NCBI GenBank assembly: GCA_964347325.1
Contig: CAYFYA010000005.1
Span: 52,984-76,983 of the forward strand
Source of the DNA: an uncultured Methanomassiliicoccales archaeon
Lineage (GTDB): Archaea; Thermoplasmatota; Thermoplasmata; RBG-16-68-12; JAJISG01
DNA: 24,000 bases
Reading direction: 5' to 3'
Shown: positions 5,533 to 24,000 of the stretch, piece after piece
How positions within the stretch are numbered: the stretch's first letter is position 1
How the letters are laid out: each line of letters opens with the position of its first letter
Made by a program: the position numbers and the translations under genes
Notes under the pieces: generated by a model
The model's input: only the letters and a program-made list of their open reading frames with translations
The model's database searches: none
Told to the model about the DNA's origin: nothing

Positions 5533-7175
5533 TGGAATCCGGCTTCAACTGGAGACGACGAGAGGAGGGATTGGAGGCCCTTGATAAGGAGTTCGACGTC
5601 ATAGTCGTCGGCGGCGGAATCAACGGCTGCGCGGTGGCGAACGAGACAGCGAGGAGAGGTCAACGCGTTCTCCTCTTGGAGAAGGGGGACATCGGCAGCG
5701 GGACCAGCGGTAGGTCATCACGCCTGATCCACGGAGGGTTGAGGTATCTCAAACATGGACAGGTTAAGGTCGTTTGGGACGGGTGCAGAGAGCGCCACTG
5801 GTTGAGGACCCACTACCCCTACCTCGTTCGCCCGGTTCGGTTCATCATACCCTTCTACGAAGGCGAGGGAGAGGGGCCTGTCCTGACTTTTCTGGGACTC
5901 TGGATCTACGATCTCCTCTCGGCCTTCAGGAATGTCAGCAGGCACCGTCGTCTGAGGCGAGGGGAGGTCCTCGCCGAGGAACCAAGACTGCGATCAGGGG
6001 GGCTCCAGGGTGGTGCCGTCTACTACGACTGCATGACCGATGACTTCAGGCTCGTTCTCCTCAACGCCGCCATGGCGAACGCTGCGGGGGCGTACGTACT
6101 CTCGCACTGCCGCGTGGAAGCCCCCACACTCGAAAACGATCGCGTGGTTGGGGTACAGTTCACCGACCTGTTAAGCGGCGAACCCCATTCGGCCCGAGGT
6201 CGAATCGTGATCAACACCACGGGCCCATGGAGCGACCTGATTAGAGTCGGGATTGGGGCCGCAGAGCCGATGTTGAGGCCGACCAAGGGCGTTCACCTAA
6301 TCGTCCCACGGGAGAAGGTAGGTAACCGCAACGCCGTGGTCATCAGATCTCCGACGGATGGACGAGTCCTCTTCACCCTCCCATGGGGGAAGCACACCAT
6401 CATCGGGACCACCGACACCGACTTCCCAGGTGACCCGGACGAGGTTCAGGTTGAGGGGTGGGATGTGGACTACCTGCTCGAGGCAGTGAATGGCGCCTTT
6501 CCTCGGACCGAACTTCGGCGCAGTGACGTAGTGAGCACCTACGCAGCCCTCCGCCCTCTGGTCGGGCGACAAGGTGTGTCCGAAGGAGAGGTAAGCAGAG
6601 ACTTCAAGATCGTGGAAGATGCGCCGGGGCTTGTGTCCATTCTGGGCGGGAAGCTCACCACCTACAGGCCCTCAACGCTTAGGGTTGCAGACATCGTTTC
6701 GCGGATAGTATCCAGGCGTCCGGACAAGATGAGAAGAGGCACTGGCACCCGAAGGGGCATCCCGGAGGAAGACATTCTCGGCATCAAGAAAGAGGCCGCA
6801 CAGAGAGCCGCCCAACTCGGATTGGATCAAGAGGTCGCCGGCTCTCTGGTCGCTTCCTACGGCCCACACTCCGGGTCGATCCTGGAGCTCGCCTCTCAGG
6901 GGGACCTCCGCAGGAGGATTGTTCCGGACCTCCCTCGGATCATGGCTGAGATCGTCTATTCCGTCGAAAGTGAAATGGCTCTGAGATTGGAGGACGTTCT
7001 TGTCCGTCGAACCAGGTTGTTCTACGAAGATACAGGGCACGGGTTGGGGGTAGCCAAGGAGGTCGCGGAACTGATGGCAGCCAGGACGGGGTGGAGTGAC
7101 GAGCGAGTTCAACGAGAGGTGGACGATTACCGTGGCCTCGTGGAATCGATGAGGGCCTCTCTGGAGGGGGGCTAG
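5532..7175 (+). CDS. glpD: FAD-dependent glycerol-3-phosphate dehydrogenase/oxidase (GlpD/GlpO family)
   Basis: From the internal ATG: MESGFNW...FDVIVVGGGINGCAVANETARRGQRVLLLEKGDIGSGTSGRSSRLIHGGLRYL (dinucleotide fold plus the GlpD signature), followed by a long C-terminal GlpD-type helical domain. The 68 upstream codons in the track overlap the preceding gene and are not credible. Confidence 0.85.
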   Translation: MESGFNWRRREEGLEALDKEFDVIVVGGGINGCAVANETARRGQRVLLLEKGDIGSGTSGRSSRLIHGGLRYLKHGQVKVVWDGCRERHWLRTHYPYLVRPVRFIIPFYEGEGEGPVLTFLGLWIYDLLSAFRNVSRHRRLRRGEVLAEEPRLRSGGLQGGAVYYDCMTDDFRLVLLNAAMANAAGAYVLSHCRVEAPTLENDRVVGVQFTDLLSGEPHSARGRIVINTTGPWSDLIRVGIGAAEPMLRPTKGVHLIVPREKVGNRNAVVIRSPTDGRVLFTLPWGKHTIIGTTDTDFPGDPDEVQVEGWDVDYLLEAVNGAFPRTELRRSDVVSTYAALRPLVGRQGVSEGEVSRDFKIVEDAPGLVSILGGKLTTYRPSTLRVADIVSRIVSRRPDKMRRGTGTRRGIPEEDILGIKKEAAQRAAQLGLDQEVAGSLVASYGPHSGSILELASQGDLRRRIVPDLPRIMAEIVYSVESEMALRLEDVLVRRTRLFYEDTGHGLGVAKEVAELMAARTGWSDERVQREVDDYRGLVESMRASLEGG

Positions 7176-8126: not shown

Positions 8127-8684
8127 ATGCCCCTCCCCGCCGTCTACAGGGAATCGCTACCTGTTCTACTATTGGCGGGGCTAGGTCTGGTAGCGGCCGG
8201 CCTCGTCCTCGGAGGAATGAGGGATGTCCTGGAACGTACTCCTGGGCTCCTGGTTATGGTGCCGGCCCTCATCGCCCTTCGCGGCGGCATCAGTGGCGCC
8301 CTTGGCGCGCGGATGGGCTCCGCCTTCCACATGGGTCTAATCTCGGAGGGCAGCCTCTGGAACGACGAGGCTCAGCAGAACGTGCTCGCTGCCGTTCTTT
8401 TGAGCGCCCTCTTCTCCTTCCTGGCGGGCGTATTGAGCTACGCGACCTCGATTCTACTAGGCCTCCAGACTGCAAGTCTCGTGTCCCTTGCGCTCATCGC
8501 CACGCTTGCCGGAACCCTGGCTGGCATTTCGCAGGTTGGCATAACCTTCGGCATCATCCTGGCTGCCTTCCGTTGGGGTCTCGATCCAGATAACGTTACC
8601 ACCCCCACCCTGGCAACCGTCGGGGATGTCATCACAATCCTCCTCCTCTTCGTGATCGCCCTGTCCATGGGAGGCGTTGCATGA
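8127..8684 (+). CDS. MgtE/SLC41-type divalent cation transporter membrane domain, half-size subunit A (185 aa)
   Basis: Multi-TM protein with PALIALRGGISGALGARMGS and GLDPDNVTTPTLATVGDVITILLLF, which match MgtE-family transmembrane-domain motifs. It has no cytosolic N/CBS domains. Confidence 0.7.
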   Translation: MPLPAVYRESLPVLLLAGLGLVAAGLVLGGMRDVLERTPGLLVMVPALIALRGGISGALGARMGSAFHMGLISEGSLWNDEAQQNVLAAVLLSALFSFLAGVLSYATSILLGLQTASLVSLALIATLAGTLAGISQVGITFGIILAAFRWGLDPDNVTTPTLATVGDVITILLLFVIALSMGGVA

Positions 8685-9238
8685 CGTTCTACTCCTACAG
8701 GACCATCATGGGCGAGAGCTTCCTGGCGCTGACCTTTCTTCTGGTTGTCACCCTCCTTGCGGGCCACCTCCTCAACGGGGCTGCCGACCTCTTCCTGGCG
8801 GCCCCCTTTCTCCTCATCCTGGTTCCCGTGGTCAACGGCATCGGCGGGAACGTTGGTACTGTCCTTGGATCCCGAATCACCTCGGGCCTCTATACAGGGA
8901 CCATCGCCCCGAAGCTGGGGGACAGGGGGCTCCTCCGGAACGTCAGAGACGGCGTCATCCTCTACATCGTAACCTTCACCGTTCTGGCAATGTTCATATA
9001 CGGATTGGGGCCATTAACAGGAGTCGTACCACCCTTTGGAGTGGGGGTGCTCCTCTTAGTCATGCTCTCCACCGGTCTGATGCTCGCGGGGGTCCTTACC
9101 GCGGTGACCGTCTCGGTGGCCTTCCTATCCTTTTCCAGGGGCCTAGACCCCGACAACTTCGTCACTCCGGTGGTGACGACTATGGGAGACATCGTTGGAA
9201 TTGGATTCCTGGTCTTGGTTCTGGGGGTGCTACTGTGA
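8681..9238 (+). CDS. MgtE/SLC41-type divalent cation transporter membrane domain, half-size subunit B (185 aa, paralog of the previous gene)
   Basis: VPVVNGIGGNVGTVLGSRITS and GLDPDNFVTPVVTTMGDIVGIGFLV, with the same length and layout as subunit A. ATGA overlap with the upstream gene. Confidence 0.7.
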   Translation: MTFYSYRTIMGESFLALTFLLVVTLLAGHLLNGAADLFLAAPFLLILVPVVNGIGGNVGTVLGSRITSGLYTGTIAPKLGDRGLLRNVRDGVILYIVTFTVLAMFIYGLGPLTGVVPPFGVGVLLLVMLSTGLMLAGVLTAVTVSVAFLSFSRGLDPDNFVTPVVTTMGDIVGIGFLVLVLGVLL

Positions 9239-9843
9239 AAGAGAGCTTTGAGGAAGTCGAGTACGAGCCTACGAGCGTCAAGGACCTGTTGGTTGAGATG
9301 AAGGATACCAGCGAACTGATTATCGACCTGGCGTACGCGGCGGTAATGTTCGACAGTGACGAGCTGGCGGAGGAGGTCCGTCACCTGGAGAGCAGGATGG
9401 ACTTCCTGAGGTACCAGATGCGTATGATCGCCCTCATGGCTAGCAGGACGAGAGAGGACTCCGAGAGGCTGGCGGGGATCCTTCAGGTTGCTTCGGCCGC
9501 GGAGACCATCTCGAACGCGGCGGGCGACATCGTGGACCTCCTGGAGCAGAGGATAGAAGCTAGGCCCTTCCTGCCCTTCGTCCTCCAGGAAGCGGAGGAG
9601 AAGATCCGAATCCTGCGAATGAGCAAGAAGTCCTCCATGCTAGCGCGGGACGTAGCGGACCTTCGAGTTGAGTCGGAGACCGGGATGAGGATTATCGCCA
9701 TCCGCCGCGGAAGACGTTGGAACTACGACCCGCCTAGCAGCACAGTCCTCAGGGAAGGCGACCTGTTGATTGTTCGTGGGACGGAAGACGGCTACAACAG
9801 GCTGACGAGATACGCGTCTGGAGAGGAGGGTTGGCCGGGGTGA
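9235..9843 (+). CDS. Cytosolic PhoU-like helical domain + TrkA-C (RCK_C) domain protein, copy 1
   Basis: Only the last 202 codons of track ORF 8677..9843 are credible, with a GTG start at 9235 overlapping the upstream TGA. The sequence VKDLLVEMKDTSELIIDLAYAAV...ETISNAAGDIVDL is followed by VADLRVESETGMRIIAIRRGRRWNYDPPSSTVLREGDLLIVRG (TrkA-C pattern). Confidence 0.65.
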   Translation: MKESFEEVEYEPTSVKDLLVEMKDTSELIIDLAYAAVMFDSDELAEEVRHLESRMDFLRYQMRMIALMASRTREDSERLAGILQVASAAETISNAAGDIVDLLEQRIEARPFLPFVLQEAEEKIRILRMSKKSSMLARDVADLRVESETGMRIIAIRRGRRWNYDPPSSTVLREGDLLIVRGTEDGYNRLTRYASGEEGWPG

Positions 9844-9847
9844 TCGC

Positions 9848-10402
9848 TTGGATATAGAGGACATTCTCCTTGAGATGAAGGACACGAGCGAGCTGATGGT
9901 GGACCTGGCCTACTCTGCCCTCCTCTACGACAACGAGGAGATCGCCCGCCAGGTCCTGGAGCTGGAGAGCCAAGTAGACGAATGGGACGAACAGGTTCAG
10001 AAGCTGGCGGTGGAGAGGGCGATCGAGGATAGAGACGTGGAGAAGGCCCTGGTCTTCATACGACTCGCGGACTCCATCGAGACAGTAGCCGACGGTGCCA
10101 TCGAGATCGCCGACGTCGTTCTGAGGGATATCGAGCCCCATCCTGTGGTGGCAGCCGCATTGAAGGAGTCAGATACTGCAATCACAACCGTGAAGGTGCC
10201 TGCAGCATCTCCGGCGGCGGGCAGAACGCTGGGGGAGATGAAGCTGGCTTCAGAGACCGGCATGTGGGTCATCGCCATTCGCAGGGGAGAGAGATGGATC
10301 TACGGCCCCGACGAGAACACTCGGGTGGAGCCGGGAGATCTGCTCATCGCCCGCGGACCCGTGGAAGGCGAGGAGGAGCTTAGGCACTACATCGGTGGAT
10401 AG
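9848..10402 (+). CDS. Cytosolic PhoU-like helical domain + TrkA-C (RCK_C) domain protein, copy 2
   Basis: Paralog of the previous gene: ILLEMKDTSELMVDLAYSAL...ETVADGAIEIADV...LGEMKLASETGMWVIAIRRGERWIYGPDENTRVEPGDLLIARG. TTG start. The stop codon overlaps the 3' end of the convergent tRNA. Confidence 0.65.
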   Translation: MDIEDILLEMKDTSELMVDLAYSALLYDNEEIARQVLELESQVDEWDEQVQKLAVERAIEDRDVEKALVFIRLADSIETVADGAIEIADVVLRDIEPHPVVAAALKESDTAITTVKVPAASPAAGRTLGEMKLASETGMWVIAIRRGERWIYGPDENTRVEPGDLLIARGPVEGEEELRHYIGG

Positions 10403-10472
10403 CCCCGGGCAGATTCGAACTGCCGTCACGAGGTCCAGAACCTCGCATGATTGACCGCTACACTACGGGGCT
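10400..10472 (-). tRNA. tRNA-Gln(CUG), copy 1 (73 nt, no encoded CCA)
   Basis: Hand-folded minus-strand sequence AGCCCCGTAGTGTAGCGGTCAATCATGCGAGGTTCTGGACCTCGTGACGGCAGTTCGAATCTGCCCGGGGCTA. Acceptor AGCCCCG/CGGGGCT (A1:U72), discriminator A. Anticodon stem CGAGG/CCTCG with loop TT-CTG-GA. T arm GGCAG-TTCGAAT-CTGCC. Confidence 0.85.
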
Positions 10473-12211: not shown

Positions 12212-12282
12212 TAGCCCCGGCCGGATTTGAACCGGCGCCTGGGGATCCAGAGTCCCATATGCTGCCACTACACCACGGGGCT
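12212..12282 (-). tRNA. tRNA-Gln(CUG), copy 2 (71 nt, no encoded CCA)
   Basis: Hand-folded minus-strand sequence AGCCCCGTGGTGTAGTGGCAGCATATGGGACTCTGGATCCCCAGGCGCCGGTTCAAATCCGGCCGGGGCTA. Same acceptor stem and discriminator as copy 1. Anticodon stem (T)GGGA/TCCC(C) with loop CT-CTG-GA. T arm GCCGG-TTCAAAT-CCGGC. Confidence 0.8.
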
Positions 12283-12423: not shown

Positions 12424-14010
12424 TCAGTCTCGGCTGGCCTCATCCAATCGAGAGAGGACGAAGTCCCTGTCCAGGACGACGAGCAACGGTGCGGCCCTGG
12501 GACCTGATGGCTTACCTAGAAAAACCGTGTAGAGAGCGGCGAAGAACCTCTTCGTCGAAACTCGCAGGGTTCCGCTGCCCGTGAGCTCCACCATGGCATC
12601 CTTCACGCTCCCCTCCAACCAGGGGATGTCCTCCAGCCGACCCCGCAGGGCGGCCAACGCTTCTCTTTCCTTGCTGGAGAGGCCCTCCCGCACCTCAGCG
12701 GGCAAGGTCTCTTGTATCTGAAAGCGTGCATCTTCCGGACCATAGTTGGTCACCCACAGTAGCGACTGTTCAAGCCGCTTCCCAAGCAGCTCCCTCTCCG
12801 CCTGCGTGAGAGACCTATCCAGGAGTCCAGTGTCCTCCAGCCGCCTTGTGGACCAGTCGAGACGGCCGTCAGGAGGTGCCGCTTGAGCCATAATAGATGC
12901 ATGGCGATAGGCAACCTGGAAGGGCATCTCAGAAGGGGGCGCACCGAGTAGAGATAGCGAGTATGACCTAGCCTCAGGCGACTCGCCACTGAAGAACGCG
13001 GCCTCACCTTGGTCATAGGCCTGATGATACAAGTCCATCTTGGCAAGGTCCAGGACGACCCTGCGGCGGATCGGGATGTTGGCATACAGGAAGCGGAGGA
13101 TCTCGGGCTCCGCCATCTCCAGCCACTCCTCGGGCCCGAACCCCACGAAGTCTGAGCTGTCCATATCTCCTCGGTCCTGACCGTTCTCCGATAGGCCCAC
13201 CCACTCGTATGGAATGCCCAAAGGCGGCTTAATCCCAATGACGTCTTCAGCGATGGCAGCACAGCTCTCCCGGGAGCCACCTGGCGCCGCGTGGTCCTTC
13301 CCGAAGGGCTCCACATCCACCTTAAGCAGGGCCCAGAGGGCAGGCCACTCTACCCGCCAGTTCAGTTTGCCCAGACTCAGGTGTGACGTCCCGCTGTGGC
13401 CGCACCCGCACTCATAGTCGACCTCGGCCGCACGAACCTCGAGGGCCCTGGCCTGGCCAACTCGATGACACTCATCGCACAGAGGCTCGAAGGGGACCCA
13501 GCCCTCTGGATGGGGGTTACGGGGCCTGTAATCGTTGAGTATCCGCCTTATCTCCTCCGTCAGGGGCAGTATTCGTCGGACGAGATCAATCATCTCCTCT
13601 CGCTCGTAGATCTCCGTCGTCGTCGTAACCTCGACGCCGGGAGCAAAGCGCTGCAGCGAGGAGCCGAAGCCCTCCCAGAAGTGGTCCACCCAGTTCCCAT
13701 GGCACCCGTGGGGGTCAGGAACGTCGATCAGCCGCCAGCCCGTGTAGGCCTTTCCTTCATCTCCAGCGAACTGTGCGACCTGTTTGGGACTTCCCTTCCA
13801 CGGGTCCTGCGTGTAAAGGACGAGGTGCTGGACTACCTCCTTCCCCTCATCCCTGAGGTGCGAGGCGATGAAGTGGTTGAGGACGATCTCTCCACGCAGC
13901 CTTCCGACGTGCTGGAGGCCCGACACGGAGAGGCCCGCGTTGCAGACTACCTTCGACTTGGACGCTAGGAAAGCGTCTACGGAGTGGGCAAGCTCATCGA
14001 ACCAGTGCAT
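12424..14010 (-). CDS. lysK: Class I lysyl-tRNA synthetase homolog (528 aa) with a non-canonical KMSKS loop
   Basis: MHWFDELA..., SGLQHVGRLRG (HVGN-type HIGH motif), VPDPHGCH, a CxxC...CxC zinc-like insertion, LNWRVEWPALW, EPFGKDH, and C-terminal FFAALYTVFLGKPSGPRAAPLL all follow the class I LysRS layout. The KMSSSKG position reads DMDSSDF. Confidence 0.8.
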   Translation of the reverse strand: MHWFDELAHSVDAFLASKSKVVCNAGLSVSGLQHVGRLRGEIVLNHFIASHLRDEGKEVVQHLVLYTQDPWKGSPKQVAQFAGDEGKAYTGWRLIDVPDPHGCHGNWVDHFWEGFGSSLQRFAPGVEVTTTTEIYEREEMIDLVRRILPLTEEIRRILNDYRPRNPHPEGWVPFEPLCDECHRVGQARALEVRAAEVDYECGCGHSGTSHLSLGKLNWRVEWPALWALLKVDVEPFGKDHAAPGGSRESCAAIAEDVIGIKPPLGIPYEWVGLSENGQDRGDMDSSDFVGFGPEEWLEMAEPEILRFLYANIPIRRRVVLDLAKMDLYHQAYDQGEAAFFSGESPEARSYSLSLLGAPPSEMPFQVAYRHASIMAQAAPPDGRLDWSTRRLEDTGLLDRSLTQAERELLGKRLEQSLLWVTNYGPEDARFQIQETLPAEVREGLSSKEREALAALRGRLEDIPWLEGSVKDAMVELTGSGTLRVSTKRFFAALYTVFLGKPSGPRAAPLLVVLDRDFVLSRLDEASRD

Positions 14011-14016
14011 CCCATC

Positions 14017-14610
14017 TCACGCGATTCCCCTGGCCCTGACCAGGGCCCTCAGGGGTACACCGTCTACATCATCCTTGTCCGTCTTGTTGACCACGACGAC
14101 GGCCAAGACCGCCTTTCCCCCAGCCTGTTGGATCTCATTCGCGGTGCCCCGGATCGTCTCTCCAGTGCCCATGACGTCGTCAACTATAACGACGTTCTTG
14201 CCGTCGACACCAGCATAGTTTGAGCTGAAGGCACCGCCTTTGTGGCGCTCCGCCGCCGGCCGATAGACCACGAGCTCCTTGCCCAAGTCCTCTGAGATGA
14301 GCGTCGCGAAGGGTATGCCGTTGATGGAGATTCCCACAATCGAATCCGCCTCGATGTCCCGCTTTTCCATCTCCTCGAGGATGACATCCGTCAGGGCCGC
14401 CGAGACGAAGCCTATTCGGTTGCCATAGACCCCGATGGATCTCCAGCCAATCTTGATGTCACGGGGCGGGGCCCCACCCTTGACGCCGCGAGTAAGAAGC
14501 CAGGTAACCGTCTCTGAGGATAGGTGCAAATCGTCGCCTATCTCCTTCTCGCTTAGCCCTTTCTCCTTGTACTCCATCGCCTTGCGGACTAGCGCATCTA
14601 TGCTCTTCAT
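14017..14610 (-). CDS. HTH + phosphoribosyltransferase-domain protein (PyrE-like / GfcR-type putative transcription regulator)
   Basis: N-terminal KGLSEKEIGDDLHLSSETVTWLL (HTH) fused to a type I PRT domain with the PRPP loop VVIVDDVMGTGETI. The ATG at 14610 is preferred over the GTG at 14616. The stop lies 6 nt before the lysK ATG. Confidence 0.75.
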   Translation of the reverse strand: MKSIDALVRKAMEYKEKGLSEKEIGDDLHLSSETVTWLLTRGVKGGAPPRDIKIGWRSIGVYGNRIGFVSAALTDVILEEMEKRDIEADSIVGISINGIPFATLISEDLGKELVVYRPAAERHKGGAFSSNYAGVDGKNVVIVDDVMGTGETIRGTANEIQQAGGKAVLAVVVVNKTDKDDVDGVPLRALVRARGIA

Positions 14611-14641
14611 CTGCACACCGGGGAAGGCAACTTGTACACCG

Positions 14642-14649
14642 ATATTAAG
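14642..14649 (-). promoter_or_regulatory. TATA-like box (TTAATATC on minus strand) for the PyrE-like / lysK operon
   Basis: Minus strand reads CCTTAATATCGGTGTACAAGTTGCCTTCCCCGGTGTGCAGATG. The box is 32 nt upstream of the ATG. Confidence 0.4.
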
Positions 14650-14710
14650 GTTGAGTTCTGGTCAACCTGGGCCTTCATATCTGCAGTGCTTGCTTTCGGC
14701 CTTGACGTCA

Positions 14711-16405
14711 CTACATGAGGTCCTCGACGTCCTCCTCCATCTTGGCCAGCTTGTCCTCGACCGCCCTCTTCAGGAGGAAGAAGGGAATGGAACCGGCGTA
14801 GAGAATCGTGTCGTGGAAGAACCCGAGGGAGAACTTGTCTCCCATCCTCTCCTGGACTTCACTCCTGAGGCCCTGGATGAGGTGCTTCCCAAGGAGGTAG
14901 CTCAACTGGTATCCCGGGTTCTGCGTGTAGCGCTTCACCTCGGCCAAGGCTGCGGGCTTCTCGATGCTCGCTTCCCTAACCAGCATGTCGACCGCCTCGT
15001 CGAAGGTCATCTTGCCACAGTGCAGGTCGACGTCGATGATGATGCGGCAGGCCCTCCATATTATGTCCTGGAGCTGGGTGAACCTGACCTCCGGCGACTC
15101 GCTGAAGCCCGTCTCTTGCATCACGTCTTCGGAGTAGTGCGCCCAGCCTTCGACCGTCTCAATCGCCCCGAAACTCCCAAGAACCCTGATGAGGGAGGGG
15201 TTCAGGTTTGCAGCGGAGAGCTGGAGGTGGTGCCCTGGATACCCCTCGTGAACGGCCGTGTTCCGGATGGACGCGTGGCTGTGCTTCCTCAAATCTCCCA
15301 CACCGTCTGAGGGCGGTGTAACGATGTAGACCCCCTCCTGCACCTTGTCAAACTTGGCGGCTCCGAAGAGGGCGGCGAAGGGTATGATGGGCCTGATGAA
15401 GGTGGGCGTCTCCATGACGTGGAGCTTCTCGGCCGGCGGCAGGGTGGCCAGACCCTTCTCCACGATAAAGGAGCGAGCCTCCTGAATGGTCTTCCGCACC
15501 TCCTCCAGGACAGCGTCGAAGTCCTTGGGGTGCTCTGACTTGATGCGATCGTTGACCTCGTCGACGGTAGCCTTCGGGTCAATGGACTTGGCCACCTTGG
15601 CGAGTTCCTCCTTCGATTCCTTCAGGTAGCTATCGCCAAGCTCACGGATCTTGTCCACGCCGAGTCCCAAGCGCCTCATTTCGATGAGCCTCCTGAACTT
15701 CTCCTCACCGAGAATGTGGGGGGCGGAGGCCTCTGGGAGAACATCCTCCTGCAGCCAGGATTGATACTCGGAGAGGGCTGCGGCCGCCTCCTCCTTAGCC
15801 TTCTTGAAGTCCGCAAAGGCGGAGTCGGGAACCTTGCCCGCTACGGATTGGGCGATGACCTCCAGGAAGGCGGGCGTCATCCTCGCCGACTCGATGGCCA
15901 TCTCGGTCCAGAGTTTGACAGGCCGCGTAATCCTGGACTTGATCTCCTTCAGGTAGCGAGGGGTGCCCTCAAGTCTCCCAGTCATCGCCTGGACACGAGT
16001 GGTAAGCGGCGCGAAGTCCCGCGTGAAGAGCGGGAAGAGGGCCTCCCCGACTCCCTCCGCACCTCCCGGCAGAGATTCCCAGAACCTCATCTCTTCCAGG
16101 TCGAAGAGGGATAGGTCCGCTATCTGGAGGGCCAACTCCCAGTCCAGGGGGCGGCTCCCACTGAGTTCCTCAGGATTGAAAGCCTCAAACTTGCTTCTGA
16201 GGTCTTTCGTGAAGGTGATCTCCTCTTCCACGAACTCCCTGGAGTTATCTCCCATCAGGTGGTCGTAGTCGTGAATTCCAAGGAAAGTGGCCCAGACCGG
16301 GTGTCGTTCGATGACCGTGTTGAAGAACTCCCTCGTCGTCGTGTCGAAGTCCTCATCTGACATGGTCGACCCGACGACCGTGGCCTGCATAAGGTTAACG
16401 GGCAT
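14711..16405 (-). CDS. DUF885-family protein (putative zinc metallopeptidase-like)
   Basis: Length and layout match DUF885, with the HEGYPGHHLQ motif and C-terminal YTQNPGYQLSYLLG. The start is placed at the ATG overlapping the pyrD-like stop (TGATG at 16403-16407). MSDEDFD at 16363 is an alternative start. Confidence 0.7.
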   Translation of the reverse strand: MPVNLMQATVVGSTMSDEDFDTTTREFFNTVIERHPVWATFLGIHDYDHLMGDNSREFVEEEITFTKDLRSKFEAFNPEELSGSRPLDWELALQIADLSLFDLEEMRFWESLPGGAEGVGEALFPLFTRDFAPLTTRVQAMTGRLEGTPRYLKEIKSRITRPVKLWTEMAIESARMTPAFLEVIAQSVAGKVPDSAFADFKKAKEEAAAALSEYQSWLQEDVLPEASAPHILGEEKFRRLIEMRRLGLGVDKIRELGDSYLKESKEELAKVAKSIDPKATVDEVNDRIKSEHPKDFDAVLEEVRKTIQEARSFIVEKGLATLPPAEKLHVMETPTFIRPIIPFAALFGAAKFDKVQEGVYIVTPPSDGVGDLRKHSHASIRNTAVHEGYPGHHLQLSAANLNPSLIRVLGSFGAIETVEGWAHYSEDVMQETGFSESPEVRFTQLQDIIWRACRIIIDVDLHCGKMTFDEAVDMLVREASIEKPAALAEVKRYTQNPGYQLSYLLGKHLIQGLRSEVQERMGDKFSLGFFHDTILYAGSIPFFLLKRAVEDKLAKMEEDVEDLM

Positions 16406-17310
16406 CAACGGTGCGCAACGCCAACCATATCCTCGATGTGGGCGTAGCCATTCTCCTCCATGAAGGCCTCGATTTCCTGGCACACCCCTTGGAAGACGTC
16501 GAGGCCGCGGTAGTGCACCCCGCTGCCGATCTGGACGGCGCGGGCACCCGCCATGATGTACTCCACGGCATCGAGGCCCGTGAGAATCCCACCGACGCCG
16601 ATGAGGGGGATGTTCACCTGTTCGTAGATCTCGTAGACACCGCGAATGCCAAGCGGCTTGATGGCAGGGCCGCTCAGGCCACCGGGCCTGTTTCCGAGGA
16701 CGGGTCGCGCCACATCAGGGGCGATGCTCATGGCCTTGACGGTGCTGATGGCGGTGATTCCGTCCCCTCCGGCCTCCTCAACCGCCTGGGCCATGACGAC
16801 TATGTCTCTGACATTGGGCGAGAGCTTCACGAACACCGGAAGCTTGACGGCACTCTTCACCTCGGCGGTAACCCTGGATACCAAGTCGGCGTCTCCGGCG
16901 ATCTCACCCAGTCCTAGCGGGTCGGGACAGCTCAGGTTGAGTTCCAGAGCGTGAGCGCCGTACACCTCCATGGTCCTGGCAAGCGGGCCGAAGAACTCCA
17001 CATCCTCAGCGAAGATGGAGCATATCACCGGCACCTCACTTTCCAGGGCGACCTTGATCTCCGCTGCGTAGTTATCGACGCCTGGGTTGGCCAGACCGTC
17101 GGCGTTCAGGAGACCGTGCTCCAGTTGCACCAGCGAAGGTCCGGAGTTGCCCTCCCTCGGCTCCCGGCCGATGGACTTTGTCACGACGGCTCCCGCCCCG
17201 CTAGCCGCCACCTTGAGCAGGGATTCTCCGCTATCTCCCAGGATCCCGGAGGCTAGCATCGTAGGATTCTGGAGCCTAAGCCTCCCCACGGTGGTAGAGA
17301 TGTTCGCCAT
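16405..17310 (-). CDS. pyrD: Class 1 dihydroorotate dehydrogenase-like flavoenzyme (PyrD/DHOD-DPD TIM-barrel family)
   Basis: LQNPTMLASG, VVTKSIG, GLLNADGLANPG, ELNLSCP, KLSPNV, GGLSGPAIKP and IGVGGI are DHOD class 1 landmarks. Two positions I recall as substrate-binding Asn read Asp (SCPD) and Ser (AIST). No pyrK is adjacent. Confidence 0.7.
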   Translation of the reverse strand: MANISTTVGRLRLQNPTMLASGILGDSGESLLKVAASGAGAVVTKSIGREPREGNSGPSLVQLEHGLLNADGLANPGVDNYAAEIKVALESEVPVICSIFAEDVEFFGPLARTMEVYGAHALELNLSCPDPLGLGEIAGDADLVSRVTAEVKSAVKLPVFVKLSPNVRDIVVMAQAVEEAGGDGITAISTVKAMSIAPDVARPVLGNRPGGLSGPAIKPLGIRGVYEIYEQVNIPLIGVGGILTGLDAVEYIMAGARAVQIGSGVHYRGLDVFQGVCQEIEAFMEENGYAHIEDMVGVAHR

Positions 17311-17377
17311 CCTGCGCGTTATGGGTACCTTCGCCTTAAGGTTCTATCGGACCTATTGTGGGAGTGTGGAGCGATGG

Positions 17378-17706: not shown

Positions 17707-20700
17707 CTATGGCCAGTCAAAGCTGAAGAGTGCCCAGGAGTAAGACAAGTAAGGCGTTACGACTTCCGTGAAATTCACATCCACAGGCGTATCCTCAATA
17801 TCGGTTATTCCAAAGGCAAGGGGGCCATAGCCGAGTGAGAATTGCCTACGATCCCTGTCGCCGTAGGCGAGACCGAAATCAATAGGTCCATCGAGGGATA
17901 GTCCAGTGGTGGGCGTAGCAAGTACAAGGTATGCGTCTATGCCCGCATCCGTTATGTAGAACGATAGCGCAGGCAACAAGGTGACCTCCGCGCCTGGCCC
18001 TTCTCCGAAGGGGAGAGTGATGGCCACCTCCACCGTCACGAAAACTCCCAGGACGCTGCCGGAGGGAACATTCACCCCGCTAACGAGGAGATCATAGTTG
18101 CTGGGGTCAAAGATTTCTGGCCAGGCAAGGAAGCTGGACAAGTCCGGCAGAGTAAAGGCGAGTTGAACGCCCGTCAAAGTCTCTATTTCATCTATGAACG
18201 AGTTGAAGAGAGCCTGCAAGGTCGCGACGTTCATGTCATCGACTAGGACCGCAACGTCGGCGGCCAAATCCAGAAGCCACTCAACGGTCCGATCGCTCAT
18301 GTCCTTCACACTCTGCGGGATCGGGAGGTGCTGAATCCCTGGGCGCAGTATGTCGTATGCAAGGCTCACCACGTCTTTGGCCGCTACAAGTCCGTTTGCG
18401 ACGAAATCGGCTGCAACCTTGAAACCGGCCTCCAGAAGCTCGACGGGACCAGGGATCTGCAGTTCGTTGACGGATTCGTTCAGAAGGCCGGATACATCTC
18501 TGAGTGCACCGTTCACATCGAGATACGGGGCGAGGAAGCGAGACTGCACGCCAGCGAAAGTCTGTATGCCAGAAAGGATGGCCTCGATGGCTGGCCGTAG
18601 GATCTGCTCAATTACCCAAAGGGCGCCGTCTAGGAGTAGGTCGAGAGCCTCCCTTCCGAGGTCCAAAAGGATTTCCAAGGCCTGAGTCGCGAAATCGTAT
18701 ACCGCGTCGAGAGCATCGGCAACGCCTGCAATGTTTGTCCTAGACTCCGCACTGTTGTCATTGCTGTCCCACGCCCTCACCTTCACATCGAAGCCGTGCC
18801 AGATGGCGCTCCCGATATTGACCTCATGTGAGAACCAGCCCACTTTGATGAAGGCCCTATGAACCTTCACGTTTCCGTTGATGTCTATTCTTACGGTATC
18901 AAGCGTGGTTTCGCCATCCTCGACTTTGAACGTTCCTCGTACCTTCACCCAGTCCAGGACCTCCCTATATCCCGTGACCACCGTCTCGTAGACGGTCCTC
19001 ACGACCCTGTCCCACCGCAGGGTGAGGACATTCCATACGCTCTCGGTTACAGTCCTTTTCACCCTCTCGTAGATCGGCTCGAGGGAAATGTGCACGTCCA
19101 CCGATATGGTGAAATCTGTTATGCTGGGCGAATTGCGCTCTACGATGAGAGGAGCGGGATCCACATGGTCCAATAGCCCGTCCCCGTCCGTGTCGCGGTG
19201 ACGGGGATTCGTACCAATGACAAATTCGTCGTAGTCCGTCAGCAGGTCGCCATCCGAATTGATCCTGGTCGGATCTGAGGTAACCGGTAGCTCCTGGATG
19301 TCGTCCACCCGGTGTATGATGAAGACAATCCAACCATTGTATTCGGTGCCGTCGATTAGGCCATCGCCGTCGGTGTCCTTGTCGAGGGGATCGGTGGAGG
19401 CAAAGAACCACTCATCGTCTGCCAGGTGGTCACCGTCCGTGTCCTGCAGTGTGGGGTTCGTACCATCGTTGTATTCCCACCAGTTCTGGCGGCTATCACC
19501 GTCCTTATCCTTCCACTGATCAACCGAGTCGTAAGCGATGAGGTTGAACTCCAGTTCCCAAGCCGTCGGCATCCCGTCTCCATCGTCATCACTATCCTGT
19601 ATGTTCCAGATGCCATTGCCATCGAGGTCGTGCGTGGCATAGAACTCACCCAGCTCATACTCTTCCAGATTCGTTAGGCTATCGCTGTCGAAGTCAGCGG
19701 CGGCGTCGGTTCCGTTCAGCGGGTCCAATCCGGTGAACTGCCCCCAGCGGGCTTCAAACTCGTCAGGAATCCCATCGCCGTCGGTGTCAGGGTCATTTGG
19801 ATTCGTGAAGTATGTCTGCTCCTCGGCGTCATCCAGCCCATCATCGTCACTGTCCGGGTCCAAGGGATTGGTTATGTAGCCATCAGCTCCACTGTTAACC
19901 TCCTCGAAGTCATCTAGACTGTCCGAGTCGCTATTGGCATCCAGGGGATCGGTTCCATGGATTATCACCTCATCACCGTCCGAGAGGAGGTCGTCATCGG
20001 TGTCACTGTCGGTGAGGTTCGTCTCCCCAGATGCAAAGCCGTCCCACTGCCCGTTGTGGTTGGCATCCTCCGTCCCATCCAAGAGGCCGTCTCCGTCCAT
20101 GTCCGGATTGGTATCGTCGGGGTCAACGCCCGTTATGAGCCCATCATCATCCTGGTCGTTGTCGAGAGGGTCCGTCTCAATCACAGGATTGAGAGGATCA
20201 AAGCGAGGATCGCCTGAAAGGTCGGGATCCAAAACGCCATTGCGATTGAAGTCCTCACCTTCGGCCGGATCGTAGAGGTTGTCGCTATCGAGGTCCACCC
20301 ATCCATCGTACAGAAGGGCATCGCTATCAGAATTCTGATCTCGCGCGTTGATCCACCCGTCTCCATCAGTGTCCCCGTCCCAGGCGTTTTCGGTACCATC
20401 TAGGATTCCGTCGCCGTCAGAATCGGGGTCCAGCGGGTCCGTCTCCCTGAAGGTGGCGGGGGTATCGTAGGCTCCGTTGCGATTCCTGTCCTCAATGCCA
20501 TCCAAGAGCCCATCATTGTCGGAGTCCGGATCGGCGGGGTCCGTTTCCCCCGGATCCGTAAGCCCATCTTTGTCGGTGTCTTCGATTCCGTCGAGGAGCA
20601 AGTCGTCGTCAGAGTCGGCATCTAGAGGGCTCGTCCTCAACCCTACCTCTATCCCATCCACCAACAGGTCGTCGTCCGTATCACTGTCCGTTGGGTTCGT

Positions 20701-23700
20701 TTCGCCAGGATCCCACTTCCCGTTGAGGTTGGCATCTTCTTGCCCGTCTAGGAGGAAGTCAACATCCGTGTCGCCCGACCTGGGATCTGTGAACAGGTAT
20801 TCCAGGTCGTCGGTCAGGAGATCCCCATCTGGGTTGGGGAGAGTAGGATCGGCAGTGACATGAACGGTGGCGCCGTTCACCGTGATATCCCATCCTGCAA
20901 CTTCTACGCCATCGATCAGGCCATCACCATCGGTGTCCTCGTTGGCGGGGTCCGTTATGTACCCGTCGACTCCCGGAATAACCTCCTCATAGTCCGTTAG
21001 GCCGTCGGCGTCCGTGTCCACGATCAGGGGACTTGGCTCGTCGACGTCTGTGAAGCCGTCGCTATCCACATCCTCCTCCCCATCGGCGAGGCCATCGTCG
21101 TCAGAGTCCTTATCGAGCAGGTTCACGATGGAGTCGGTATCAGTATCGACGAAAGGTCGCTGTTCCTTGGCGTCTGGGACCCCATCCCCGTCGGAATCCA
21201 AGTCGACCATGTTTTCCAGTCCATCATTATCCATGTCCGTGTTAGGGTGAACCGTCTGTTCCACGAAATCGGTGATGCCATCGCTGTCGGAATCGAGATC
21301 GAGGGCGTTCAGATACCCATCCTGGTCGGTATCCTTATCGTATAGAGCCTCCGTTCCATCAAGGAGCCCATCATAGTCGCTGTCCGGGATGAAGGGGCTG
21401 ATCCTCCAGTATATCTCCTTGCCCTGAAATCCTACTGCAGGAAGGTCCGACGAGACGATTGATACGCCGGAGGAGACGAACACGTAGAGAGTCCCCTCCA
21501 GAGTCCCTGTCCCGTCCCTATCGAGGAAGTCGGAGAAGGGTTCCCAAATATAGACCCGATCCAAGTCTCGATCGTAGAATATCCTCGTGCCGTCCACCAG
21601 TCTGAACACTCCCTCGACGCCGGGGCTCCTTGCGTTCGCTGGAGATGTGCTCTCCACATCCCTCTCAACGGAATCGAAGAGATAGGCTGCCCCGGGAAGG
21701 CCATCAGTCACGTTCCGGTCGAAATATATCCAGTCATCTGCAGCCGCGTAGTTCTCAATGCTCTCCGCGCCATCTACCACACTCGTCCTAAAGAGAACGA
21801 AGGCCTCCTGGCCATCCTGCAATCCGTCCTCATCATGATCAGTGCCAAGCTCGAAGCCGCCCGCTATCGTGCCGTCTCCGTCCCAGTCGTACGGCTTCGG
21901 ATTCGTCCCAAGGTTGAACTCCATGACGTTCGTGAAAGGCGTCCAGTACCGGGTGAAGTCCCCATCAGGATTCCCGTCATCCCCATCATCCCCAATCGCA
22001 GAGAGCGGGTCGACGTGGACACGGACTTCCCAGCCGTCCGGCAGACTATCTCCGTCGGTGCTCCACTTCAGCGGGTCCGTCTCTGACAGATCCTTCCGAC
22101 CATTCTGGTTGACATCTTCTCCCAATTCATCAGTCGAGAAGACGTCATTTCCGTCCGCGTCAAACCAACCGTCGTAGAGTCCGTCGTCGTCCGTGTCGAA
22201 GTCAAGTGGGTCCGTCACGCTGGCTGGGTCGGCGTCAGAGAGGATTCCGAGCTCGAGGCCGTCGGAAAGCATATCGCCATCCGAGTCCCAGCTCAGTGGG
22301 TTCGTTCCAAGCCTCGACCACTCGGAGAAATCTGTCAGCCCATCGTGATCGCTGTCCACGTTCAAGGGGAAAGTCCCTATGAACACCTCCGTACCATCTT
22401 GGAGGCCGTCTCCGTCCACGTCCGGGTCTAGGGGATCGAGCTGGAGCTTCTCCGCGAGGATGTAGCTCAGGAATGCAGTGAAGTCAAAGTCCTCTGGAAT
22501 GTCCCCGACGATGGAGGTTTCATTCAGGTCAATGATTACCGTGTATATTCCGGCTTCAAGGTCGAAACTCCTTAACCAGAAGGAGTAGATGTCGCTGTAC
22601 CCAGCAGAGAGATAACGATTTGCGTCGGTGATTATGGTGTTGTCATACGTGGGAGGAATTGCCACGCCGTTCTTCTCGACCGTAACCTCAATGGCTTCCA
22701 TGAGCTTCGTCAAGTTGACGGTTGTCTCCGAGGGATACGGATTCAGCCACCGGATGCTGTTGTCGACGAGCCTGTGCTGCTGGGTAACGTTCATTACCTC
22801 GGTGATGTCGAACGACATGTATACGATCTGGCCGCCATCCATCACGTCCCCGTTGTCATCGAAGGTGTTGACACCATAATCGCCAAAGAAGTCCCACTGG
22901 AACACGGGCTGAGCATCCGCGAGGTTGAAGAACGCATCAGCATCTGACCCCGTATACCTCATTAAGAGGACACTCTCGTTCAACGTAAAACCAGAAGTCA
23001 CCGGGTGATCCACTATGGAAATCAGACGGCTGGTTCCTCCATCCTCCAGGCCCACCGCGTGAAGCACGATACCACTGAAGGCGGGATCCGCCCAAGCGAA
23101 GGTGGAGAAGTCCCCTCCCTCGATAAGCAACCTTCCGCCAGTGAGGACGAAGTCAATGAGGAGCGGACGTTGGATAGGATCGGGCAGGGGGTTGGGATCG
23201 TCTCCCGAGCTCCACACCACGAAGTCATAATCCAGCAGGTCAACGTCCCACAGCCGTGTGGAGTCGGCCATATCCACCCTGAGGCCGAGCAGATTCAACC
23301 TAGTCGCGAAGAGATCGGCGCTGAACTCAAGTCCATCTTCAACCTTATCATCATTGACGACCAGCACTCGCGGATTGTACAAGATCCCATTCGCTGGAAT
23401 CTTCAGCCTGTAGTGCCCCTCCTGCTCGATCTGCAGGATTCGCTTGACAGGAGGCATCCACATCCGGAGCTGCTCCCTAACTCTGACGCTATCGTAGGCG
23501 AAGAAGTCAAACAGCTCCTCGGAATCTAGCAGGCCGTCCTCGTCTGTGTCAGGACTATACGCATCGGTTTCGAATCCCACTTCACCTGAATCTAGCAGGA
23601 AGTCCGAATCCGCATCTGCAATCCTGGGTGGCGTTCCGAAGTTGAACTCCCCCACATTCATGAGCAAATCTTCGTCGGGATCATTCACGCCATCCTGATC

Positions 23701-24000
23701 GTCCAACGGGTCGAACTGATACCAAACCTCCCAGCCATCGCTCATCAGGTCTCCGTCAGTATCCTTATCTGTGGGATCCGTGTCATTCAGGTACTCCTCC
23801 AAATTCGTGAATTGCTCGAAGGCGTCGACGATGCCGTCTCTGTCGAAATCATAACCATCGTCGTCGGAATCGATGGCCGAGTCAGACGGATCACGAGGAT
23901 TCAGCCCATATCGCTCCTCCCACGAGTTGGGAATCCCATCCCCGTCCCAGTCCGGGGGCAGATAATAGATTCCAGCTAGAATGGCCGCCACTACAAGGGC
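17707..24000 (-). CDS. Giant (at least 2097 aa) acidic surface/secreted protein with ~50 thrombospondin type 3-like Ca-binding repeats; the reading frame is open to the right window edge
   Basis: A single 6.3-kb ORF. The frame continues through 23992-24000 (ALV-VAAILAGIYYL, the tail of a hydrophobic anchor or signal). It carries dozens of DxDxDGxxDxxE motifs (for example DTDGDGLIDGVE, DPDSDNDGLLDGIE, DKDSDDDGLADGEE) and recurrent DGxPxxWExxYGLNP-type motifs. Confidence 0.85.
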   Translation of the reverse strand, partial: ALVVAAILAGIYYLPPDWDGDGIPNSWEERYGLNPRDPSDSAIDSDDDGYDFDRDGIVDAFEQFTNLEEYLNDTDPTDKDTDGDLMSDGWEVWYQFDPLDDQDGVNDPDEDLLMNVGEFNFGTPPRIADADSDFLLDSGEVGFETDAYSPDTDEDGLLDSEELFDFFAYDSVRVREQLRMWMPPVKRILQIEQEGHYRLKIPANGILYNPRVLVVNDDKVEDGLEFSADLFATRLNLLGLRVDMADSTRLWDVDLLDYDFVVWSSGDDPNPLPDPIQRPLLIDFVLTGGRLLIEGGDFSTFAWADPAFSGIVLHAVGLEDGGTSRLISIVDHPVTSGFTLNESVLLMRYTGSDADAFFNLADAQPVFQWDFFGDYGVNTFDDNGDVMDGGQIVYMSFDITEVMNVTQQHRLVDNSIRWLNPYPSETTVNLTKLMEAIEVTVEKNGVAIPPTYDNTIITDANRYLSAGYSDIYSFWLRSFDLEAGIYTVIIDLNETSIVGDIPEDFDFTAFLSYILAEKLQLDPLDPDVDGDGLQDGTEVFIGTFPLNVDSDHDGLTDFSEWSRLGTNPLSWDSDGDMLSDGLELGILSDADPASVTDPLDFDTDDDGLYDGWFDADGNDVFSTDELGEDVNQNGRKDLSETDPLKWSTDGDSLPDGWEVRVHVDPLSAIGDDGDDGNPDGDFTRYWTPFTNVMEFNLGTNPKPYDWDGDGTIAGGFELGTDHDEDGLQDGQEAFVLFRTSVVDGAESIENYAAADDWIYFDRNVTDGLPGAAYLFDSVERDVESTSPANARSPGVEGVFRLVDGTRIFYDRDLDRVYIWEPFSDFLDRDGTGTLEGTLYVFVSSGVSIVSSDLPAVGFQGKEIYWRISPFIPDSDYDGLLDGTEALYDKDTDQDGYLNALDLDSDSDGITDFVEQTVHPNTDMDNDGLENMVDLDSDGDGVPDAKEQRPFVDTDTDSIVNLLDKDSDDDGLADGEEDVDSDGFTDVDEPSPLIVDTDADGLTDYEEVIPGVDGYITDPANEDTDGDGLIDGVEVAGWDITVNGATVHVTADPTLPNPDGDLLTDDLEYLFTDPRSGDTDVDFLLDGQEDANLNGKWDPGETNPTDSDTDDDLLVDGIEVGLRTSPLDADSDDDLLLDGIEDTDKDGLTDPGETDPADPDSDNDGLLDGIEDRNRNGAYDTPATFRETDPLDPDSDGDGILDGTENAWDGDTDGDGWINARDQNSDSDALLYDGWVDLDSDNLYDPAEGEDFNRNGVLDPDLSGDPRFDPLNPVIETDPLDNDQDDDGLITGVDPDDTNPDMDGDGLLDGTEDANHNGQWDGFASGETNLTDSDTDDDLLSDGDEVIIHGTDPLDANSDSDSLDDFEEVNSGADGYITNPLDPDSDDDGLDDAEEQTYFTNPNDPDTDGDGIPDEFEARWGQFTGLDPLNGTDAAADFDSDSLTNLEEYELGEFYATHDLDGNGIWNIQDSDDDGDGMPTAWELEFNLIAYDSVDQWKDKDGDSRQNWWEYNDGTNPTLQDTDGDHLADDEWFFASTDPLDKDTDGDGLIDGTEYNGWIVFIIHRVDDIQELPVTSDPTRINSDGDLLTDYDEFVIGTNPRHRDTDGDGLLDHVDPAPLIVERNSPSITDFTISVDVHISLEPIYERVKRTVTESVWNVLTLRWDRVVRTVYETVVTGYREVLDWVKVRGTFKVEDGETTLDTVRIDINGNVKVHRAFIKVGWFSHEVNIGSAIWHGFDVKVRAWDSNDNSAESRTNIAGVADALDAVYDFATQALEILLDLGREALDLLLDGALWVIEQILRPAIEAILSGIQTFAGVQSRFLAPYLDVNGALRDVSGLLNESVNELQIPGPVELLEAGFKVAADFVANGLVAAKDVVSLAYDILRPGIQHLPIPQSVKDMSDRTVEWLLDLAADVAVLVDDMNVATLQALFNSFIDEIETLTGVQLAFTLPDLSSFLAWPEIFDPSNYDLLVSGVNVPSGSVLGVFVTVEVAITLPFGEGPGAEVTLLPALSFYITDAGIDAYLVLATPTTGLSLDGPIDFGLAYGDRDRRQFSLGYGPLAFGITDIEDTPVDVNFTEVVTPYLSYSWALFSFDWP
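19160..22446 (-). repeat. Main coding array of TSP3-like aspartate-rich repeats inside the giant ORF, interrupted by a ~145-aa non-repeat insert at ~21385-21815
   Basis: It runs from LDPLDPDVDGDGLQDG (about 22446) to RDTDGDGLLDHVDP (about 19160). The repeats are degenerate at the DNA level (GAC/GAT-rich periodicity) and are not exact tandem copies. Confidence 0.7.
23500..24000 (-). repeat. N-terminal block of ~7 TSP3-like repeats of the giant ORF
   Basis: DWDGDGIPNSWEERYGLNPRDPSD, DSDDDGYDFDRDG, DKDTDGDLMSDGWEVWY, DADSDFLLD, SPDTDEDGLLDSEE. Confidence 0.65.

Follow-up and report, generated by a model that had tools for sequence, protein, structure and literature searches.

The window analysed here is a stretch of 24,000 nucleotides from an uncultured Methanomassiliicoccales archaeon (contig CAYFYA010000005.1), and it ends in a single gene (17707-24000, minus strand) for a giant acidic protein, P0001. 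With moderate confidence, we regard P0001 as an anchored, Ca2+-loaded acidic stalk that presents a lineage-specific head and works like other surface adhesins built from thrombospondin type 3 (TSP3) repeats; its Ca2+ binding, rigidity, topology and adhesion we infer. P0001 is a further case of the Asp-rich, TSP3-repeat giant surface proteins, a class that is widespread and already described. What sets it apart is that the host is archaeal, that the repeats lack cysteine, that three modules are orphans, that long and short forms exist, and that the 3' part is apparently recombinant.

The reading frame is uninterrupted, as the initial annotation had proposed, being free of stop codons over 2,097 codons and running past the window edge. 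The full-length product in the protein database, from which the N-terminus of P0001 was taken, has 2,125 residues, and the window translation corresponds to residues 29-2125 with 100% identity, leaving only 28 residues (MAAQQGTSRPKTPFFRDTKKLAAISVAA) beyond the edge. The gene is real, conserved and under purifying selection. An orthologue of 2,130 residues with 82% identity, P0002, is encoded in an independent assembly (GCA_012974945.1, locus L002), between genes for a Hel308-type helicase and pyrD, which is the syntenic position of the window gene, and a gene for 2,130 residues occupies the same position in a species-representative Methanomassiliicoccales metagenome-assembled genome (MAG; locus L004). 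The long forms of 2,125 and 2,130 residues are separated by only 7 gap positions, and the ratio of nonsynonymous to synonymous divergence (dN/dS) is 0.134 for the giant gene versus 0.10 for the neighbouring pyrD. In two orthologues, a TTG start codon is preceded by a Shine-Dalgarno-like GGAGG. Scans of the 3' intergenic region for bacterial-type promoters and terminators, which are unsuited to archaea, returned nothing.

The extreme acidity first attributed to the protein is evident from its composition (Asp 17.4%, Asp plus Glu 23%, Lys plus Arg 4.7%, no Cys, isoelectric point (pI) 4.05), and extends over the whole length of P0001, non-repeat domains included (pI 4.05-4.23). Because the Asp content of proteins encoded by neighbouring genes is ordinary (3-9%, with pI values of 4.3-9.1), the acidity is specific to P0001 and not proteome-wide, and the acidic 'salt-in' proteome of a halophile was rejected as its source. 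The antisense pseudo-open reading frames (ORFs) are rich in Ser and Pro, again as previously described, with 19-35% Ser and 8-14% Pro within the repeat blocks.

The domain order and sizes originally outlined agree with the verified coordinates, which delimit a 355-residue non-repeat region, a 1,095-residue repeat region and a 485-residue C-terminal domain. An insert estimated at about 145 residues is present and measures 135, and both short beta-like inserts were verified by translation. From N- to C-terminus, the features are as follows.

23956..24000, minus strand: C-terminal 15 residues of the N-terminal transmembrane (TM)/signal-anchor helix (P0001 29-43), by exact match to P0001 and hydropathy
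23515..23955, minus strand: N-terminal block of about 6-7 TSP3-like repeats (P0001 44-190), 24.5% Asp, by a self-built hidden Markov model (HMM) and TSP3_bac (18.7 bits in 3 stretches)
22750..23514, minus strand: predicted 255-residue alpha/beta globular module (P0001 191-445), by secondary-structure model, PDB profile and Foldseek
22450..22749, minus strand: predicted 100-residue beta-rich module (P0001 446-545), by predicted strands, with a model confidence (pLDDT) of 50-77 in parts
21805..22449, minus strand: second TSP3-like block (P0001 546-760), 21.9% Asp, by TSP3_bac (26.1 bits) and the self-built HMM
21400..21804, minus strand: 135-residue non-repeat insert (P0001 761-895), predicted mostly beta, by alignment
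19165..21399, minus strand: main TSP3-like array (P0001 896-1640), 25% Asp, about 25 units, by TSP3_bac (25.2 bits in 6 stretches), TSP_3 (16.1 bits), the CglD model and the self-built HMM
20845..20895, minus strand: short beta-like insert GWDITVNGATVHVTADP within the main array, translation verified
19270..19335, minus strand: short beta-like insert GWIVFIIHRVDDIQELPVTSDP within the main array, translation verified; the short form described below resumes just upstream
17710..19164, minus strand: 485-residue orphan C-terminal domain (P0001 1641-2125), by conservation and secondary-structure prediction
17707..17709, minus strand: stop codon TAG, by ORF read-out

The two short inserts of the main array are related to each other and beta-hairpin-like. 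The repeats themselves are far in excess of what composition alone would give: the motif DxDxD occurs 61 times in P0001 versus 10.6 times in shuffled sequences (maximum 23), and the motif of the tandem unit of about 22 residues, DxDxDGxxDxxE, is found in exact form 19 times versus 0.01. The repeat number of about 50 given initially is too high, as the self-built HMM finds about 40 units, of which about 30 are robust (E<0.01); likewise, the motif DG(I/L/M)P..WE..Y..(N/D)P, said to punctuate the array, has only two matches even with a relaxed pattern. We class the repeats as TSP3-type. When isolated, the second block and the main array score just above the Pfam gathering threshold, which is 25 bits for both TSP3_bac (PF18884) and the eukaryotic TSP_3 (PF02412), with the N-terminal block falling below it, and precomputed annotation assigns PF18884 to the orthologues P0002 and P0003. 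The TSP_3 scores are under the cut-off for the whole protein (14.5 bits) as well as for the best segment. The gliding_CglD model NF033765 reaches 267 bits over 8 stretches, below its equivalog cut-off of 400 and in the repeat part of the model only; its best stretch pairs P0001 1014-1184 with model positions 70-256 of 1124. Similarity to the repeats is common to 727 large bacterial and archaeal proteins, including those of Thermoplasmata, Heimdall-, Thor- and Woesearchaeota, and many of the bacterial relatives join TSP3_bac with extracellular modules (OmpA, S8 peptidase, transglutaminase, beta-helix and PKD). TSP3 repeats bind Ca2+ and are found in giant extracellular proteins predicted to be membrane-anchored (bioRxiv 10.1101/2023.11.21.568195).

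A check of the full-length gene for a signal or anchor found a basic segment and then a hydrophobic helix about 22 residues long, after which the acidic repeats begin (MAAQQGTSRPKTPFFRDTKKLAAISVAAALVVAAILAGIYYLPPDWDGDG). Five of residues 1-21 are basic (R9, K11, R16, K19 and K20), and the Kyte-Doolittle 19-residue mean reaches 2.67 at residues 17-28 and beyond, its peak falling at 21-43. The only other region above 1.4 lies at 1998-2030 (1.4-1.7) and contains charged residues. The basic tail and hydrophobic helix are kept in P0001, P0002, P0003 and the short form P0126. Based on the positive-inside rule and the long hydrophobic core, the segment would be an uncleaved signal anchor with an N-in/C-out topology. 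No C-terminal anchor (PGF-CTERM, TM helix or basic tail) was detected in P0001, which ends ...YLSYSWALFSFDWP without a terminal hydrophobic helix, and a scan for NCBIfam sorting domains was also without a match. The same N-terminal segment could instead be a cleaved Sec signal peptide, in which case P0001 would be released as a Ca2+-cross-linked polyanion that builds or binds a matrix or biofilm. We consider this unlikely. A small-residue (V/I)LAG towards the end of this segment, conserved in 4/4 orthologues, is a possible signal-peptidase site, the lack of a second anchor would suit a secreted protein, and two TSP3 proteins, COMP and thrombospondin, are secreted into the matrix. However, the hydrophobic core (about 22 residues) and the n-region (about 21 residues, five of them basic) have the dimensions typical of a signal anchor and exceed those usual in a signal peptide that is cleaved, and there is no AxA-type site immediately after the helix.

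Natural variation in length indicates which parts of the protein are retained. In a related species, Thermoplasmata archaeon K_3_bin.4, the same locus encodes a form of 734 residues, P0126, that lacks the middle 1,391 residues.

19378..23524, minus strand: stretch absent from the 734-residue short form (approximate limits), by P0126, junction DNA and BLAST limits

P0126 is composed, in order, of the anchor and first repeats, an in-frame junction within a DTDGDGLLDG unit, a hairpin (GWIVFII), a pair of repeats and the C-terminal domain; that is, the N-terminal repeat block and the C-terminal domain are kept, with the alpha/beta module, the 135-residue insert and about 30 of the approximately 40 repeats missing. 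The short form is present at two loci (L005 9248-11452 and L003 3046-5250), the ORF of the former being identical to P0126 at 733/734 residues, and was recovered both from a Logan assembly and from a deposited MAG contig with 47x coverage, one substitution apart. In the window genome, only about 20 of 27 bases are common to the two repeats at the junction. Assembly collapse is therefore unlikely as the source of the 734-residue form, given a second assembly and imperfectly matching junction repeats, even if the assemblies may derive from related samples. In the more distant lineage of P0123 (61% identity), a long repeat array is still found upstream of the C-terminal domain, and thus the long form looks ancestral and the short form looks like a repeat-mediated deletion from it. 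By this comparison of sequences, the anchor and head are the conserved core of the protein, and the stalk with its embedded modules is dispensable in at least one species. That the short form retains just the anchor, a small number of repeats and the conserved C-terminal domain supports the view of P0001 as an anchored stalk presenting a head.

The presumed head, the 485-residue C-terminal domain, had been described as unique, and it has no match in Pfam, NCBIfam, PHROGs, PADLOC or PDB. It is found in only 3/185,579 species-representative genomes, and at 2 loci among 241 million metagenome records. Matches in PDB to designed helical bundles and HslU (E>=0.09) were discarded, since Leu-rich helices attract such matches through their composition. 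When 1.84 billion representatives were searched exhaustively with phmmer, four proteins were found at E<=0.001, namely P0001, P0123, P0124 and P0125. P0001 and P0123 are of the same lineage, their C-terminal domains sharing 61% identity. P0124 (2,714 residues, 10 stretches) is probably spurious, its matches being an artefact of low complexity or of the repeats in a DUF11-like array. P0125 (L007 796-1944, 382 residues), from an AT-rich organism, is a weak partial relative with 28% identity over 152 residues; the shared part is a beta-sandwich-like block with the first helices, beyond which P0125 has several hydrophobic TM-like helices and an end in ...LDW. The predicted order of elements in the C-terminal domain of P0001 is a short beta segment, two helices, the beta-sandwich-like block, about eight amphipathic helices, and a beta-rich tail that ends in an invariant LSYSWALFS(F/Y)DW. 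With 88% identity to P0002, the C-terminal domain and the 135-residue insert (89%) are the two most conserved regions of the protein.

Taken together, the architecture suggests the following mechanism. A short basic cytoplasmic tail and one TM helix would hold the protein in the membrane as a type II protein (N-in, C-out), placing about 2,080 residues outside the cell. There, about 40 cysteine-free TSP3-type DxDxDG sites would chelate Ca2+, or possibly Mg2+, from the pore water; Ca2+ is plentiful in deep marine sediment. Binding of the cations would make the poly-Asp regions fold as a stalk, stiff and strongly negative, along which the flavodoxin-like alpha/beta module, the beta module and the 135-residue insert would be strung, and the 485-residue head at the far end would most likely contact a ligand, a surface or another cell.

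Several observations weigh against this mechanism. The Pfam support for the repeats is marginal, with the whole protein scoring 22.5 bits for TSP3_bac, below the cut-off, and a phmmer search of the repeat block against PDB sequences gave no thrombospondin or COMP match, probably due to the bias filter. Eukaryotic TSP3 repeats are disulphide-bonded, and their cysteines are missing from the repeats of P0001. For bacterial OmpA TSP3 repeats of solved structure, Ca2+ binding is reported to depend on an intra-repeat disulphide. Because P0001 is without cysteines, the stoichiometry of Ca2+ binding and the rigidity of the stalk may differ from those of such disulphide-dependent repeats. No recognised adhesin domain (VWA, lectin or Ig-type) was detected in P0001, and N-glycosylation sequons are not enriched (10 versus 11.2 expected). 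The AlphaFold models were poor, both for the C-terminal domain (pLDDT 36), with which Foldseek gave nothing significant, and for the alpha/beta and beta modules together (pLDDT 39.5 overall). Lastly, the genes surrounding that of P0001 are housekeeping genes and offer no functional hint.

The acidity of P0001 could also be a function in itself. A dense, negative layer loaded with Ca2+ or Mg2+ might replace or supplement an S-layer, buffer cations and protect the membrane, an explanation to which we assign a low probability, as we do to its corollary that the globular modules serve packing only. Charge density is extreme over the whole length of the protein, no recognisable binding domain is found in Pfam or NCBIfam, and the Thermoplasmatales, which belong to the same class, are reported to be without a paracrystalline S-layer (PMC12448462). 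A role for bulk charge is hard to square with the short form, which has lost most of its repeats yet keeps the head, or with the distribution of constraint, which is strongest on the C-terminal domain and the 135-residue insert and not on the repeats as such. Moreover, a coat protein would be expected to be very highly expressed, whereas the gene is single-copy and lies in a housekeeping context.

The modules embedded in the stalk are themselves without recognised families. The 355-residue non-repeat region comprises the 255-residue alpha/beta module and the 100-residue beta-rich module. The former carries the invariant motifs DxxxWSSG and GGRLLIEGG ... GGQIVY ... NxIxWL, and has no match in Pfam (even at E<=10), NCBIfam, PHROG or PADLOC. 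Its one relative outside the family, P0121 (34% identity over 174 residues, E 2e-17), has the order signal peptide, alpha/beta module, P_proprotein and FlgD_ig domains; the recurrence of the module behind a signal peptide in a secreted-type protein supports an extracellular setting for P0001. Two methods, both of them weak, converge on a fold that is probably flavodoxin-like. A profile of the module ranks the flavodoxin 5lji first in PDB (E 0.02, 17.3 bits, non-significant), and Foldseek with a weak model, whose pLDDT is 50-77 in that region, again ranks 5lji first (E 0.075, non-significant). The class-I amidotransferases GatD and PuuD are also among the top-ranked Foldseek matches (E 0.08-0.5), these too being non-significant. 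The module shares with flavodoxin and class-I amidotransferase domains a beta-alpha-beta-alpha-beta pattern, and differs from them in its presumed extracellular setting and in matching no Pfam family. In the stretch aligned to flavodoxin, no cofactor motif or flavin mononucleotide-binding loop is evident, and because P0001 has no Cys, the catalytic triad of the amidotransferases is unlikely to be present. The 100-residue beta-rich module is 70% identical to that of P0002, and has no family match in Pfam; the 135-residue insert has none in Pfam, NCBIfam or PDB. Matches of the non-repeat segments to HATPase_c (E 0.057) and to phrog families (E 0.03-0.09) were rejected as noise.

Divergence between the window gene and its L002 orthologue is not uniform, and changes just upstream of the 135-residue insert, near window position 21900.

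17707..21900, minus strand: low-divergence tract with 76-94% nucleotide identity (mostly 84-94%) to the L002 orthologue, by comparison with L002

In this 3' tract, identity at third codon positions is 58-89% and the synonymous divergence (dS) is 0.26-0.59. The 5' 2.1 kb (21900-24000) has about 72% nucleotide identity to L002 with third positions at 40-56%, and the flanking housekeeping genes (12457-17341) have 70-73% nucleotide identity; taken together, these two regions span 70-74% against L002/L004, with a dS of 1.3-2.4. The difference is sharpest at the 3' end, where dS is 0.26 for the C-terminal domain versus 1.6 for pyrD, only 366 bp downstream. Because the synonymous divergence of the 3' tract is so low, selection at the protein level is insufficient as an explanation, and the simplest reading suggested by the sequences is an exchange of the 3' 4.2 kb between the two lineages at some time later than their split. 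A further reading, improbable on present evidence, is that the C-terminal domain, perhaps together with the 135-residue insert, is the cell-cell recognition or attachment head, with a new fold, of a small clade of marine-sediment Thermoplasmata, swapped by recombination and carried on a stalk whose length is tuned by repeat-mediated deletion. If so, the gene would be a mobile 'surface identity' cassette and more than another repeat protein.

A recombinant, low-divergence 3' end could also reflect the exchange of effectors, with the C-terminal helical-bundle-plus-beta region acting as a membrane-active or toxic tip that the stalk delivers on contact. The approximately eight amphipathic helices followed by amphipathic beta-strands, the moderately hydrophobic stretch (Kyte-Doolittle about 1.7) at residues 1998-2030, and the multiple hydrophobic helices into which P0125, the sole outside relative, runs on are all compatible with such a tip. 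Nevertheless, this explanation is very unlikely: the tips of polymorphic toxins are hypervariable, whereas the C-terminal domain is highly conserved between species (88% and 61%); no immunity-like gene is adjacent, as a gap of 219-400 bp is followed by pyrD; and there is no match to a toxin or pore-former family or fold, the fold model being unreliable. The possibility that the frame merely reflects repetitive DNA rich in GAC/GAT, or arose when repeats led the assembly astray, is effectively refuted: the sequence is indeed repetitive and compositionally biased, and the 734-residue version could in principle be an assembly collapse, but length and frame are conserved at 82% identity with a dN/dS of 0.13, synteny is conserved, the start codon is preceded by GGAGG in two orthologues, and the frame is intact in independent assemblies, at full length in L002 and L004 and for the 3' end in L001 (100% identity) and L008 (97.6%). 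Repeat-driven misassembly is also unlikely because the repeat copies are only 60-79% alike at the DNA level, and Tandem Repeats Finder reports no real tandem array in the gene.

Read as an anchored stalk with a lineage-specific head, P0001 has parallels in three known systems. The giant TSP3_bac proteins of the Omnitrophota ('Dockerin-type', bioRxiv 10.1101/2023.11.21.568195) are similarly long, Asp-rich and predicted to be anchored, and combine DxDxDG repeats with globular modules. P0001, with its archaeal host and orphan modules, differs in having no dockerin, discoidin or other recognised domain, in being much shorter than these giants, which have at least 30,000 residues, and in repeats that are only marginally at the Pfam cut-off. 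CglD of Myxococcus xanthus, a beta-integrin-like gliding adhesin that mediates Ca2+-dependent adhesion and traction, is also a cell-surface protein with a long DxDxDG block of the TSP3/COMP type. Unlike P0001, it is a lipoprotein of the outer membrane, and has a VWA/MIDAS domain as well as EGF-like modules rich in disulphides; P0001 has a predicted TM anchor, no VWA domain by Pfam, no cysteine and about three times as many repeats. Finally, the TSP_3 calcium 'wire' of thrombospondin and COMP shares with P0001 the tandem DxDxDGxxDxxD/E units, an extracellular location (presumed for P0001) and a globular domain C-terminal to the repeats, but no disulphide-forming Cys and no lectin-like TSP_C domain were detected in P0001.

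The host is an archaeon, one of the uncultured Thermoplasmata of marine sediment. The window genes are archaeal housekeeping genes (for PurP, class-I LysRS, GluRS, archaeal D-aminoacyl-tRNA deacylase, Tpt1, PyrD and MgtE/PhoU-TrkA_C proteins), and the carriers of the family are labelled as Thermoplasmata or Methanomassiliicoccales MAGs, one of which comes from a deep marine-sediment project (PMC8319310). Some features of the neighbourhood are recorded here in their own right. At 8127-10402 (plus strand), the membrane domain of an MgtE-type divalent-cation transporter is followed by two PhoU plus TrkA_C proteins; the cluster lies about 7 kb from the giant gene and is also near the locus in L005, with no link to the giant gene established. 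A 777-residue PKD-repeat protein (L002 1259-3592, minus strand) and a Kelch/beta-propeller protein that exceeds 1,426 residues (L002 23259-26393, plus strand), both putative surface proteins, are encoded near the L002 locus, a hint that large extracellular proteins are a heavy investment for this lineage. A pyrK-like gene (DHODB_Fe-S_bind) is found between pyrD and a DUF885 gene at L002 17504-18286, L003 6461-7246 and L005 12663-13448; at this position it is missing from the window (16374-16411) and from L001, a Logan contig identical to it, and in both of these pyrD abuts or overlaps the DUF885 gene. Two different tRNA-Gln(CUG) genes (10400-10472 and 12212-12282, both minus strand) flank the GluRS gene, sharing 52/73 aligned columns and scoring 59.8 and 62.5 bits with Rfam. 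Because the upstream of the two overlaps the called GTG start of the GluRS ORF, the true start of GluRS is further downstream. Likewise, the ORF of an FAD-linked oxidase (3949-5532, plus strand) overlaps by about 200 nucleotides that of a GlpA-like FAD oxidoreductase (5328-7175, plus strand), and since the Pfam domain of the GlpA-like protein begins at residue 90, its true start is probably downstream.

To our knowledge, very few archaeal surface proteins have been characterised besides S-layer proteins, pili and archaella, and no characterised TSP3-type protein from archaea was found in the literature searched. The value of P0001 is that of a lead and not of a discovery, because its distinctive parts are orphan domains. 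Nonetheless, the locus provides a clean, full-length example that has no cysteine and occurs naturally in a long and a short variant, and it could be used to ask whether TSP3 repeats of the bacterial type bind Ca2+ without disulphides, and how uncultured Thermoplasmata of sediments attach to particles or partners.

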